NCBI GenBank assembly: GCA_038046605.1
Contig: JBBSVW010000009.1
Coordinates: 4,940-53,980 of the forward strand
Origin: Candidatus Micrarchaeota archaeon
GTDB lineage: Archaea > Micrarchaeota > Micrarchaeia > Norongarragalinales > SBBD01
Direction: 5' to 3'
DNA: 49,041 bases
How positions within the stretch are numbered: the first letter of the stretch is position 1; each line of letters begins with the position of its first letter. This document shows positions 4,523 to 19,759 of this stretch, piece after piece. The translations under genes and the position numbers were made by a program. Below the pieces are notes generated by a model. That model searched no databases and was not told where the DNA came from. It saw nothing but the letters and a program-made list of their open reading frames with translations.

Positions 4523-5770
4523 ATGGACAACAAGAGCGTTTTCAACGGGATAATCATAGGGATACTTTTAGTTCTCGTAGTTGCGGGAGGCTATTTTGTG
4601 CTAATCTCGATTGGCGCAATTGGAGGAGGACCGCAAAAGCCAACCCCTACAAGCTCCATCACCACGATAACGCCAACACCGTCCGTGTCGGCGCCAAAAA
4701 TCGACATTATTATGCTTACTGCCCCCGAATGCACGGATTGCTTTGACATAGAGGCAATCCCATACGTGCTCCAGCAAAATGGTGCGCAGGTCACCCAGAA
4801 AAAGGTGATTTATACTTCCGATGAAGGAAAAGCGCTTATAGGAAAATTCAACGTTACAAAACTTCCAACGGCCATCGTTTCAGGAGAAATATCCAAAATC
4901 CCCGAATTCGAAGGGCTACTTTTAAAGGCCGGTGAAAAAATTGATGGGAAATTCGTCCTCAAGGACATTGCCCCACCATACCTGGATTTGGAGTTAGGCA
5001 AAATAATTGGGAAAATCAAATATGCGACAATTTACGATCAATTCTGTTTTGAGTGCAGGAAGGCAAGCGTCCCGATCCAAAGTTCGGCTGTGAATTTCAG
5101 CCTCCTTGCAGAAACACTAAAGGAGGTGTTCTCGATTGGGATAGCCGAAGATATCGAATACGAGGCCAACACAACAATGGCTAGGGAGCTCATTCAAAAA
5201 TACAAGCTGGAAAAGCTGCCGGCAATCATAATGTCGGATGACATATTGGCATACCCCGCGCTTGAGGCTATTTTTGCCAACATCTCGACTATCGAAAGCG
5301 ATGGAAGCTATGTTTTAAGGAAATTGAATCCACCCTACCTGAATTTGTCAACGGGCAAGGCAGGCGGGCTGGTTTCATTTGTCTACATAAAGGCAGGTGC
5401 TAGCTGCGAACCGGAATGCTACGATTATACGGTCCATACAACAGCCCTGAATAATCTTGGGGTAATGGCCACTTCCTCGTATTATTATGACTACGATTCG
5501 TCCCCGGGAAGGAATTATACGAAAATGTACAATATCACAAAGGTCCCAACCGTGCTCATATCCCCGGAGGTCAAATTGTATCCCGCATTCATGAGCGTCT
5601 ATAAGCAGATTGGCGATTTTGAGAAGGATGGCTGGTTTGTGTTCCGCAACTTCAAGGTGCTGGAAGGGGCGTGGTTTTTCGACCTTACCACAAACACCAC
5701 GGCTACACTTGACCCGAATTTGGCAAATCAGGCAACGGGAGGCAACTTGCCACCAAATATTGGAGGCTAG
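4523..5770 (+). CDS. Membrane-anchored protein with three thioredoxin-like (CxxC) repeats
   Basis: AGGTGA RBS before ATG 4523; N-terminal TM and PT linker; repeats with CTDC, CFEC and CEPEC, each followed by K(F/Y)(N/K)xxK(L/V)P and later by a G-x-aromatic-V-(L/F)-(K/R) motif. Confidence 0.7.
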   Translation: MDNKSVFNGIIIGILLVLVVAGGYFVLISIGAIGGGPQKPTPTSSITTITPTPSVSAPKIDIIMLTAPECTDCFDIEAIPYVLQQNGAQVTQKKVIYTSDEGKALIGKFNVTKLPTAIVSGEISKIPEFEGLLLKAGEKIDGKFVLKDIAPPYLDLELGKIIGKIKYATIYDQFCFECRKASVPIQSSAVNFSLLAETLKEVFSIGIAEDIEYEANTTMARELIQKYKLEKLPAIIMSDDILAYPALEAIFANISTIESDGSYVLRKLNPPYLNLSTGKAGGLVSFVYIKAGASCEPECYDYTVHTTALNNLGVMATSSYYYDYDSSPGRNYTKMYNITKVPTVLISPEVKLYPAFMSVYKQIGDFEKDGWFVFRNFKVLEGAWFFDLTTNTTATLDPNLANQATGGNLPPNIGG

Positions 5771-17682: not shown

Positions 17683-17916
17683 TCAATTTTCCCTTCTCCG
17701 CTGGGAAATGAAAAATGCCATCCCAATTAGCATCAGGAAGAAAATGCCAATCAGGACGCCGGAGCCCGAATTATTCGCCGCAAAAAAGCCGGTCAGGGGG
17801 TTTGCGCCCGGATTTTCCTTGATCACCGATTTTCCCCTGATGCCAAGGGGGTCGAGGTCGTAGGAGAAGAAGATGGCAAATGCAAGGATTGCAATTAGAA
17901 TAATTCTTCGGTTCAT
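17683..17916 (-). CDS. Small membrane protein (two hydrophobic segments)
   Basis: MNRRIILIAILAFAIFFS...GVLIGIFFLMLIGMAFFISQRRR. Confidence 0.65.
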   Translation of the reverse strand: MNRRIILIAILAFAIFFSYDLDPLGIRGKSVIKENPGANPLTGFFAANNSGSGVLIGIFFLMLIGMAFFISQRRREN

Positions 17917-18024
17917 GGAAAACAGTTCCCCGTGGAAATATTTAAGGGTTTGCCCTTTGCTTCGAAACCCCCCCTTTTACTATTTTCAATATTCATTCGT
18001 GTGAAAACTAGAGTTGAGAAAAAA

Positions 18025-18240
18025 AGTGGGCCAGCCCGGATTTTAACGCCTTGCCCCTTTCTTTTCAAAAAAGAAAGCGGCGATGGCTCCGCTGGAAAGA
18101 AAACAATTTGCTTTGAAAGGGGGTAGAGGCGATGTACGAATTGATAGGCAACTCGGACATTAGTAGAGGCGAACTCTACATAACACGAGTAGGGGGGAAT
18201 CCTTCCCCCCTATAGGTGTCGAGTGGGCCAGCCCGGATTT
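18025..18240 (+). mobile_element. Hairpin element copy D bounded by a 19-bp duplication of the tRNA-Ile 3' end
   Basis: AGTGGGCCAGCCCGGATTT occurs at 18025-18043 and 18222-18240. The insert ends AACAC-GAG-TAGGGGGGAA-TCC-TTCCCCCCTA-TAG-GTGTCG and has an internal 10-bp repeat GTAGAGGCGA (18123, 18163). Confidence 0.75.
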
Positions 18241-18375
18241 GAACCGGGAACCTTTCGATGTCCGACATTGGTCATTGCATCGCCACTTTACAGCGGAAAT
18301 GCGTTATCAGTCGAACGCTCCAACCAGATTAAGCTACAGGAATCAGCTCCCGAAAAACTTGTTTGCGAGGGTCCC
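18224..18375 (-). tRNA. tRNA-Ile(GAU) with two introns: 32 nt at position 3/4 (18341-18372) and 45 nt at 37/38 (18260-18304)
   Basis: Spliced sequence GGG|CCTGTAGCTTAATCTGGTTGGAGCGTTCGACTGATA|ATCGAAAGGTTCCCGGTTCAAATCCGGGCTGGCCCA folds as a cloverleaf. Anticodon at 18308-18306; BHB-type motifs at both junctions. Confidence 0.88.
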
Positions 18376-19162
18376 TGACTGTAGTAGCCCACAGGGTAGC
18401 TTTTTGGAGCCTATCATTTTTATATGCTATGTCGAAGCCGATATTTTTTGAAAAATTGACAAACGAGGTTCTTTTAACTCGTAAACGAAGCATGCAAGTT
18501 GTAGTATCATCCCGTTTTCTCTTAAGTTCATCTATTTTTGTTATTTCCGAGGTCTCCACCCCCAAATCGGACATGATTTTCCTCATGTGATTCAAAAAAA
18601 GGTAACCGTTTTCAACAATCGACATTTCCTTACCCATTGAATACTTCAATTCCCAGTAACCATATTTGCCAGTCTTGAAAACAGAACCCTCACAAGAGAA
18701 TGCCCTTCTTAAAAACGCCGATTTTATTTCGTTTGGCCCTCCTAAAATCCATTCGGGTATCGAGTATTTTTCCGTAACTTTATCGCCAATTTGTGTACCG
18801 CAAAGCATCAATATCCGGGATAGCGCTGAATTGCACAGAATTACGCCTGTGCTGTGGCCATTCACCCTTTTGCCCCAACTCCTTATTTTCCCCTGGACTC
18901 CAAAAACTTTCATGAGTAGTGAATTGAAGTAATCAAGTTCCCCGATATTTTTAGAGAAATAGCCCATGTAGTCATATTTCCAATGATTGTCTATTTTTCT
19001 TCCCTCCAAATGCCCATCAGTTAGGAGGCTTGCCACAATCTCAGCCAGTTCCGGTGAAGAGGTTACCGGAAACCATCCGCCATATTTTGAGATTGCTTTT
19101 TCCGCGAAAACGGAGTACCTGTAAGTAGATGCAAATCTTTCCTTATCCACAAGAATTTCCAT
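18329..19162 (-). CDS. Free-standing double-motif LAGLIDADG (intein/DOD-type) homing endonuclease-like protein
   Basis: LAEIVASLLTDGHL and SAFLRRAFSCEGS motifs, IPEWI linker, C-terminal F.KNIGF...KNDRL. No intein splicing termini. Confidence 0.8.
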   Translation of the reverse strand: MEILVDKERFASTYRYSVFAEKAISKYGGWFPVTSSPELAEIVASLLTDGHLEGRKIDNHWKYDYMGYFSKNIGELDYFNSLLMKVFGVQGKIRSWGKRVNGHSTGVILCNSALSRILMLCGTQIGDKVTEKYSIPEWILGGPNEIKSAFLRRAFSCEGSVFKTGKYGYWELKYSMGKEMSIVENGYLFLNHMRKIMSDLGVETSEITKIDELKRKRDDTTTCMLRLRVKRTSFVNFSKNIGFDIAYKNDRLQKATLWATTVRDPRKQVFRELIPVA

Positions 19163-19312
19163 TTTAGCTCGAAGATTTTTCGAAAAAAATAGTATATAAG
19201 GACGATGGGGGATAACTTCGGGTGAGGTGTAAAAATTAATCCATGGTAAAATATAGTATTGGCAAATCTATGTAAACTACCTGCCGCTGAAGCGGCAGGC
19301 GTTTGAGGCTAA

Positions 19313-19759
19313 TTAAAAATCAGAGAGCACCGATTGCTTTTCCCAGTGCTTGCGCTGCTGGCGCTCGATGTAGTAGCGCACTGTTTCCGCAGTGACGCGC
19401 CCGACTGTTTCCGCGAAATAGCCCCCTGACCAGAAGCGGTTGCCCCAGAGCTTCGTGCGGACGCGCTCCGCGAAATGCAGGCGCAGGAAGCGCGACGTCG
19501 CGCCCTTGAAGCGCTGCGCAAGCTGCGATGCCGAATAGTTCTTGCACCTGCAGACGAACAGGTGCCAGTGGTCGGGGCCAAACTCGCTCGCGCCGATTTC
19601 GATTCCAAGCGCGCTCGCGATGCGCTTTGCCTCGGAAGCGCAAGCTTCTTTAAGCACCCCGTCGCGAAACATATCGCGCCGGAATGCGGGCGTGAACTGG
19701 AGGTGGAAATTCCAGCCGCCGAAGGCGTGGTTCATGGAAATCAGGCTGTCGCTACTCAT
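19313..19759 (-). CDS. tnpA: IS200-type Y1 HUH transposase
   Basis: HLQFTPAFRR, PDHWHLFV (HUH), FKGATSR, FWSGGYFAETVG and YYIERQ (catalytic Tyr) motifs. Confidence 0.93.
   Translation of the reverse strand: MSSDSLISMNHAFGGWNFHLQFTPAFRRDMFRDGVLKEACASEAKRIASALGIEIGASEFGPDHWHLFVCRCKNYSASQLAQRFKGATSRFLRLHFAERVRTKLWGNRFWSGGYFAETVGRVTAETVRYYIERQQRKHWEKQSVLSDF

Follow-up and report, generated by a model that had tools for sequence, protein, structure and literature searches.

The 49,041-nt stretch of DNA analysed here (the window; positions 4,940 to 53,980 of contig JBBSVW010000009.1, assembly GCA_038046605.1) contains a tRNA-Ile(GAU) gene, the only one that could be detected in a Micrarchaeota genome referred to below as G000. 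The gene lies on the minus strand in three exons of 3, 36 and 36 nt, and it very probably encodes a functional tRNA whose first three nucleotides are joined to the remainder by splicing of an intron at position 3/4. This intron's bulge-helix-bulge (BHB) motif is built largely from the 5' leader, and a free-standing LAGLIDADG endonuclease gene is located directly upstream. The gene looks like the RNA end of a mobile cassette composed of an endonuclease and an interrupted tRNA 5' end, and this explanation taken as a whole, with a spliced tRNA, a leader-built BHB and an endonuclease cassette, seems likely to us. An initial annotation, made from the letters of the window, had proposed a tRNA-Ile(GAU) gene with such a leader-borne BHB, and we confirmed that the gene is real. 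Three points go beyond that annotation: the leader holds a second version of the acceptor strand, a LAGLIDADG gene adjoins the tRNA, and introns at 3/4 had been recorded before in Thermoproteales.

Upstream of the tRNA, a TATA-like box (TATAAAAA, 18417..18424) is the putative promoter element. The leader then supplies CTACAG (18379..18384), the 5' strand of the outer BHB helix, which pairs with tRNA positions 5-10, as well as the first bases of TCAG (18378-18375), one strand of the central helix. The last G of TCAG is G1, so exon 1 (G1-G3, 18373..18375) closes the 4-bp central helix with its first base and places G2 and G3 (18374-18373) in the 5' bulge GG^A. Intron 1 (32 nt, 18341..18372) folds into an inner hairpin, of which the helix CCCTCG/CGGGAG forms five of six pairs with one C.A, and ends in CTGA plus TT. 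The CTGA (18348-18345) is the other central-helix strand, the TT forms the 3' bulge TT^C with C4 (18340), and CTGTAG (18339-18334, tRNA positions 5-10) completes the outer helix. The 3/4 intron has a strict hBHBh' motif, its 5' strand being mostly leader and each 3-nt bulge having its predicted cut after the second base. Exon 2 (18305..18340) covers positions 4-37 with anticodon GAU, as placed by alignment to the Rfam model RF00005. It is followed by a second intron of 45 nt (18260..18304) at the canonical position 37/38 and by exon 3 (18224..18259, positions 38-73), with the discriminator A at 18224. In the BHB of intron 2, CTGA (positions 32-35) pairs with TCGG, with bulges TA^A and AC^A; the Rfam alignment places CTGATA in the anticodon loop. 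The initial annotation had claimed the GAU anticodon, an intron at position 3/4, a G1-G3 lying 32 nt upstream of C4, the pairing of CTACAG-TCAG-GG^A with CTGA-TT^C-CTGTAG, its geometry of a 4-bp central helix, two 3-nt bulges and a 6-bp outer helix, and a second 45-nt intron at 37/38 with a CTGA/TCGG helix; each of these claims stood when checked.

The Rfam tRNA model matched 18340-18228 with 35.6 bits, covering model positions 4-67 only and treating 46 nt of the anticodon loop as an insert. ARAGORN did not find the tRNA-Ile(GAU) gene, either with or without its intron mode. The tRNA body is near-identical to the intron-less tRNA-Ile(GAU) genes of relatives, and the isoleucine identity is assigned from the anticodon and this likeness alone. 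With the predicted G3-C4 join, the 5' strand pairs with CTGGCCC (66-72) at six of seven positions, and G1-G3 is paired with C70-C72 in all seven sequences of the alignment described below. The remaining position is a U6.U67 mismatch, which is present in the predicted spliced tRNA of this genome and of G006 and speaks against the splicing we propose. It is also the argument for a different reading, in which an upstream GGGCTA is the true mature 5' end and the 53 nt before G7 are removed otherwise, with an insertion at 6/7. GGGCTA plus G7 would fully pair the acceptor stem here (G-C, G-C, G-C, C-G, U.G, A-U, G-C), while the BHB route leaves the U.U. However, no BHB can be drawn for those junctions, as GGGC and ATTC, the tetranucleotides that precede the bulges, are not complementary; the conserved, covarying BHB cuts elsewhere, and G006 would obtain an A.G mismatch. 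We regard this 5' end as very improbable.

To assess the leader-built motif against chance, the 3' side was fixed and the upstream 150 nt were shuffled 20,000 times with dinucleotides preserved. A 12-nt 5' strand of equal quality (6/6 outer helix) appeared in 6 of the 20,000 shuffles and one with a 5/6 outer helix in 82, while the genome-wide frequency of such 12-mers is approximately 0.008 per 130 positions. We then aligned seven sequences (alignment A1: G000, G001, G003, G004, G005, G006 and G028); these and all other genomes compared here are metagenome bins. Pairing was observed in 94.5% of the cells, against 29-49% when the partners were slid by 1-3 columns, and 14 of 34 pairs were altered on both sides. 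Such changes affected 2/4 pairs of the central helix, 2/6 of the outer helix and 4/6 of the inner helix, which had 96%, 90% and 83% of their cells paired, respectively. The central helix reads TCAG/CTGA, TTAG/CTAA, CTAG/CTAG or GCAG/CTGC within A1, and GTAG/CTAC, GTAG/CTGC and ATAG/CTAT in the additional carriers G057, G046 and G198. In G028, the leader strand of the outer helix tracks an exon change at positions 5-7. Intron 1 measures 31-33 nt among the seven aligned relatives. The strict bulge spacing is also found in G003 and G006, and the G001/G004/G005 group has an extra U.U beside one bulge, giving a relaxed motif. Hence the BHB that the initial annotation described from a single sequence is kept in relatives with compensatory changes. 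A point against it is the nearest-neighbour modelling of full precursors, in which the BHB central helix reached a probability of only 0.01-0.14.

The distribution of this architecture was determined in two ways. A BLAST comparison of the locus with 40 relatives, for which 30 loci were read, revealed it in the genus-mates G001, G003, G004, G005 and G006 as well as in G028, from another family, and most other genomes had a plain, uninterrupted tRNA-Ile gene. A covariance model of the leader, BHB and exon 2 (R1) found nine carriers among 68 genomes of the order, G046 and G057 being newly found, and one further carrier (G198, from another order) in a 151-genome sample of the phylum. Low-scoring R1 matches were exon-only, on inspection of 17 + 3 loci, with 22 matches without a returned locus left out. 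A total of 10 Micrarchaeota genomes thus carry the 3/4 architecture. Counted by group for the cassette as a whole, carriers account for 6/7 genomes of the genus g1, 3/26 of the family f11, one in f17 and one in f12. Six of the ten genomes with the 3/4 architecture come from one genus, so these counts overstate independence. The 37/38 intron is present in only three of the seven aligned genes (G000, G004 and G005) and absent from G001, G003, G006 and G028; therefore, the two introns are independent.

Neither G000 nor the carriers of its genus yielded a second tRNA-Ile(GAU), R1 giving one match per genus-mate and BLAST no second exon 2 in G000, which answers the question raised in the initial annotation of whether another such gene exists. 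A crude scan for anticodon arms returned 118 matches, of which only this locus appeared tRNA-like by eye, although the scan was too noisy to carry weight. These observations bear on the possibility that the gene is a pseudogene disrupted by insertion, with a working tRNA-Ile(GAU) in the unassembled ~9% of the genome. The assembly (1.64 Mb in 106 contigs) is 90.7% complete, the gene is rejected by standard scanners and mobile-element debris lies on both sides of it. On the other hand, ten genomes keep the architecture with compensatory changes, the six carriers of the genus show no second copy, including G003 with its 7 contigs, and the tRNA body is intact and near-identical to that of intron-less relatives. 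We consider a pseudogene hardly credible.

The genome also encodes the enzymes that such a precursor would need. It has a single splicing-endonuclease gene (EndA, 388 aa), whose residues 14-388 align over the full length to residues 15-387 of PDB 4fz2 (4fz2/9w2k; E 3.5e-126) and contain PF01974 twice plus PF02778. These structures are of the ARMAN-2 epsilon2 splicing endonuclease, according to excerpts of its description (PMC12397907), and the available parts of two reports credit that enzyme with a broad BHB specificity and with cleavage of strict and relaxed BHBs in vitro (PMC12397907, PMC3239211). By its sequence, EndA is of the epsilon2 (ARMAN-2) type, a single chain of three units, in agreement with the relaxed-specificity endonuclease that the initial annotation had supposed. 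RtcB is encoded as well (569 bits), and so is an archaeal RNase P RNA, whose 88.6 bits exceed the gathering score. Over the whole genome, Rfam gave no more than 16 tRNA matches at E<=0.001 and ARAGORN 13 calls, and many tRNAs carry T-loop introns. The tRNA set of G000 is heavily interrupted, as reported for ARMAN-2. Most of its tRNA genes are invisible to routine scanners.

From these components, we propose the following order of events. Transcription would start from the TATA-type promoter and yield a leader of approximately 25 nt. This leader would form the strict hBHBh' motif at the 3/4 junction by pairing both with the 3' end of intron 1 and with tRNA positions 5-10. The epsilon2-type endonuclease would cut both bulges, as well as the 37/38 BHB, and RtcB would ligate the exons. 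RNase P would then remove the leader and create G1. Splicing should precede 5' maturation, because three of the four bases that the 5' strand gives to the central helix, and the whole outer-helix strand, belong to the leader.

The free-standing endonuclease gene (277 aa; 18332..19162, minus strand) ends with a TAA stop at 18331-18329 in the tRNA D-loop, its 3' end crossing the tRNA promoter, leader and intron 1. The bases of the TATA-like box also encode part of the C-terminal helix of this upstream LAGLIDADG protein, and the conserved DNA block over the promoter encodes IGFDIxYKNxxLQKA. The block CATAG.ATATAAAAA around the box is invariant across A1, and the TATA-like block is retained in G028 although the open reading frame (ORF) was lost there. 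By its motifs and its double alpha-beta-beta-alpha-beta-beta-alpha fold, the product is a LAGLIDADG homing endonuclease, with activity and target both predicted. It matches Pfam PF14528 (LAGLIDADG_3, E 1.3e-7) and has both LAGLIDADG motifs (LAEIVASLLTDGHLE and IKSAFLRRAFSCEGS), the acidic residues of which are retained (E158 invariant; D in 8 of 9 sequences). The structure model has a pLDDT of 90.3, the last 11 residues excepted, and Foldseek gave a probability of 1.00 to the TliVMA intein endonuclease, I-Tsp061I, PI-PfuI and I-DmoI. The family is small, with 10 proteins in a large collection, the named ones being from Micrarchaeota. A group I intron was considered as host of the endonuclease and rejected, with no Rfam match in the window at the gathering score, nor at E<=1 in 17900-19500.

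The linkage of this gene to the interrupted tRNA is close. Using tblastn, an orthologue was found directly upstream of the tRNA in 8 of the 10 carriers and at none of the intron-less loci in the searched set. The ORF stop falls in the leader, intron or D-loop at 8/8 loci, from 61 nt before to 6 nt after G7. An endonuclease-led search of 401 genomes of the phylum recovered eight orthologues above 300 bits, each beside a tRNA-Ile(GAU) whose interruption lies within the first 10 nt. One of these orthologues, in G255 (L156 2270-2420), has another arrangement: a tRNA-Ile(GAU) with a 35-nt intron at approximately position 9/10 and a 39-nt intron at 37/38 lies directly behind the orthologue. The ~9/10 intron has a relaxed BHB without a duplicated strand, and its leader is predicted to pair with the D-loop region.

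Comparison of close relatives revealed an empty site: G002, from the same genus, and G007, from the sister genus, carry an Orc1/Cdc6-like gene and after it an uninterrupted tRNA-Ile. The same Orc1/Cdc6-like gene is followed in G001, G003, G004 and G005 by the endonuclease gene and then by the interrupted tRNA, the flanking gene of G002 having 66-75% protein identity to its counterparts in these four genomes. To the left, homology breaks off after GTAAATATAT, and to the right it begins again at tRNA positions 4-7, so that the cassette replaces approximately 61 bp. In family f11 (G057), the left neighbour is a MetK-like gene instead, and a MetK-like gene also adjoins tRNA-Ile, without an endonuclease gene, in many intron-less genomes of other families. 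As the left neighbours differ, the cassette is found at the same tRNA in different contexts. There is thus a presence/absence polymorphism at one site between close relatives with conserved flanks, and a patchy distribution overall. We lean towards a cassette mobilised by its endonuclease, whose homing and target would be those predicted here.

Two of the intron-bearing genomes, G028 and G198, have no endonuclease gene, which counts against a cassette and in favour of a LAGLIDADG gene that is not the agent of mobility but a linked bystander or a domesticated protein, such as one that binds RNA and helps to process pre-tRNA-Ile. The position of the gene outside the intron, unlike that of classical archaeal intron endonucleases, points the same way, as do the LAGLIDADG maturases known from group I introns (the bI3 maturase is among the fold matches). 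Moreover, the left flanks differ between families, and simple homology-driven co-conversion cannot therefore explain a transfer between them. Nevertheless, all eight orthologues adjoin an interrupted tRNA-Ile and none was found beside an intron-less one, an empty site exists within the same genus, and the acidic residues of both motifs are retained. In addition, no more than 3 bp separate the two insertion points at the DNA level (6/7 and 9/10), which is the pattern that a single cleavage site would lead one to expect. A role without mobility appears unlikely to us.

Directly 5' of the outer-helix strand CTACAG, the leader contains a copy of the 5' acceptor strand, GTGGGCTA (18385..18392), which is complementary to TGGCCCAC, that is, to positions 67-72, A73 and the first trailer base, N74. 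This helix is 98% paired on A1. The copy pairs with the 3' acceptor strand and bases 73 and 74 in nine of the ten intron-bearing genes and in none of 32 intron-less ones, where the best run between leader and 3' strand averages 4.4 bp. Its longest run is 8-10 bp in seven carriers and 6 bp in two (G006 and G057). RNAfold placed the helix in the minimum-energy structure of 7/7 precursors, with the complete BHB alongside it in G003. The true tRNA 5' end of G255 and the leader copy here lie at a nearly equal distance from the conserved IGFD motif, which suggests that the copy is the former first exon. Most simply, this original first exon would now be discarded with the leader, and a new GGG in the insertion would take over.

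Whether the copy still serves a purpose is less clear, and the chance that it is a neutral relic of the insertion, an old first exon with no role in processing, comes close to even. The copy sits where the true exon 1 of G255 lies relative to the C-terminus of the endonuclease, it equals the exon sequence in most genes, as a duplication predicts, and it is missing in G046 and short in G057. Modelling revealed no gain in BHB formation. Indeed, partition-function modelling lent no support to the idea that the copy ties up the 3' acceptor strand and so favours BHB folding, and this idea was rejected: a scrambled copy raised the BHB probability from 0.06 to 0.53 in G000 and from 0.14 to 0.61 in G003, and scrambling did not lower it in the other five of the seven sequences. 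These results count against a functional copy, as do its absence from G046 and its mere 6 bp in G057. Once spliced, the RNA that still bears its leader is also predicted to adopt the leader-copy helix in preference to the cloverleaf, the difference being 0.4-3.3 kcal/mol in six sequences and 5.7 kcal/mol in G028; therefore, RNase P would need to capture a minor conformer.

Other features argue against a neutral relic. A complementarity of 6-10 bp is retained in nine of ten genes from three families, in which the intron loops have diverged beyond alignment. The helix reaches A73 and N74, which lie outside a duplicated 5' strand, and the N74 pairing is G-C in four sequences, G-U in two and A-U in one. 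Furthermore, where base 67 changed from A to U (G000 and G006), the change is compensated by the copy, which has A, and not by the exon, which keeps U6 and leaves the U.U mismatch in the mature stem. After cleavage, the 27-28-nt 5' fragment would be held on the tRNA body by 14 bp, of which the copy is predicted to supply 8, and this binding is predicted to be 1.0-8.0 kcal/mol stronger than with an A8 replacement. In such models, the copy may act as a clamp that keeps the severed 5' piece attached to the tRNA body up to ligation. We hold a function for the leader copy as a tentative proposal, short of an even chance.

The spliced tRNA and its endonuclease cassette can be combined in one scenario, which we put forward as a possibility somewhat below an even bet, namely an archaeal, protein-spliced counterpart of collaborative homing. 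The free-standing endonuclease would target the first ~10 bp of tRNA-Ile, and the BHB intron would split this target, making the carrier immune. The insertion would bring its own replacement of the first exon (GGG), since a BHB at the extreme 5' end needs pairing partners upstream. The old first exon would remain as a leader clamp on the 3' acceptor strand until ligation and would then be removed by RNase P. A BHB with an exon 1 located upstream of the endonuclease gene was also sought, and no matching strand was seen by eye in 19400-19100.

The surroundings of the gene contain traces of other elements. A relic second copy of the tRNA 3' end is located at 18025..18047 (minus strand), approximately 175 nt downstream of the discriminator, with GTTAAAATCC replacing GTTCAAATCC in the T-loop. 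Before it stands the inverted end of a repeated intron-like element (window 18025-18223, minus strand), and after it comes the T-run with which the gene terminates in relatives; the copy resembles a former 3' exon that has been displaced. A hairpin element of approximately 50 nt (GACACCTATAGGGG-loop-CCCCTACTCGTGTCGCCTCTACCCC) has six copies in the genome, at window 18184-18223, on contigs C26 (~10949), C106 (~10848), C34 and C55, and at a second site on C9. Three of them directly follow a tRNA discriminator, and the copy on C26 is flanked by an 18-nt repeat of a tRNA 3' end. In G008 (L013), the hairpin element comes after a 5' piece of tRNA-Ile that has been duplicated. The element resembles a small mobile element that targets tRNAs, or else what remains of an attachment site. 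Another repeat family, with approximately 15 copies, has the ends GCCTTGCC...GGCAAGG and an internal TTTCTTT/AAAGAAA hairpin, and lies in the T-arm or T-loop of many tRNA genes (G000 contigs C1, C23, C26, C27, C57, C61, C62, C73 and C75); the family has the appearance of T-loop introns in the course of spreading. The place held in relatives by the Orc1/Cdc6-like neighbour, immediately upstream of the LAGLIDADG gene, is taken here by a gene for an IS200-like Y1 transposase (PF01797, E 3.4e-25; 19316-19759, minus strand). Weaker LAGLIDADG paralogues were found within approximately 100-130 nt of tRNA or tRNA-like genes at G000:C13:17272-17889 (minus strand), just downstream of a tRNA at 17978-18093, and at L161 (G017) 1501-2133 and L163 (G013) 1501-2082. 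Endonuclease genes next to tRNA genes may be a recurrent theme in the phylum.

The pieces needed to test such a case are all visible at this locus: the endonuclease gene itself, a sister genome with the empty site, a pair of insertion points close together, and decayed stages in which the intron stands without the endonuclease. If the scenario is true, it would provide a concrete mechanism at the DNA level for the gain of non-canonical archaeal tRNA introns, for which the accessible parts of earlier proposals include intron transposition and mobile-element integration (PMC3239211, PMC3293823). The anatomy of the gene would force a processing order, splicing before RNase P, on a precursor that holds one strand of the acceptor stem twice. 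Routine annotation would score tRNA-Ile(GAU) as missing, which affects inferences on the completeness and codon usage of Micrarchaeota.

BHB introns at position 3/4 are on record in tRNAs of Thermoproteales, as stated in an excerpt of PMC4090602 citing Sugahara et al. (2008). They resemble the present intron in position and in the need for a broad-specificity splicing endonuclease, but they belong to Crenarchaeota with an (alpha-beta)2 enzyme, whereas this one is from Micrarchaeota with an epsilon2 enzyme. The disrupted tRNAs of ARMAN-2 (Ca. Micrarchaeum acidiphilum) are closer, being from the same phylum and processed by the same three-unit endonuclease (available parts of PMC3239211 and PMC12397907). 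ARMAN-2 has many non-canonical introns, and its T-loop classes 53/54 and 59/60 are abundant here too. The positions described in the part of that report available to us are 59/60, 53/54 and 37/38 (PMC3239211), with no mention of 3/4 or of the leader. In the split tRNAs of Nanoarchaeum equitans, the BHB is likewise formed from non-tRNA flanks, and long complementary flanks hold the pieces for ligation, according to excerpts of PMC4090602 and PMC4033280. Here, in contrast, everything is in cis on one transcript, and the flanking strand is a 5' leader that we propose to be removed later by RNase P.

Archaeal rRNA BHB introns with LAGLIDADG endonucleases, such as I-DmoI and I-Tsp061I, share the fold, the kind of intron and the presumed homing logic with the locus described here. 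Endonuclease genes of the I-DmoI and I-Tsp061I type lie within the intron, whereas here the gene is outside it, 5' of the tRNA, and overlaps the promoter and leader. The portion of PMC6125680 that was available reports LAGLIDADG genes only from group I introns in the rRNA of Micrarchaeota. Collaborative or trans homing in phages, described for group I introns that lack an endonuclease of their own, likewise involves a free-standing endonuclease gene beside a short intron that splits the presumed target, an arrangement that would protect the carrier (excerpts of PMC6083498 and PMC2790892). In comparison with these phage systems, the case presented here is known from sequence alone; its BHB intron is protein-spliced rather than self-splicing, its host is an archaeon and its target is a tRNA 5' end. 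A full-text search of the literature, as far as the texts were accessible, returned no report of an endonuclease linked to an archaeal tRNA intron, and both this linkage and the replaced first exon appear to be new.

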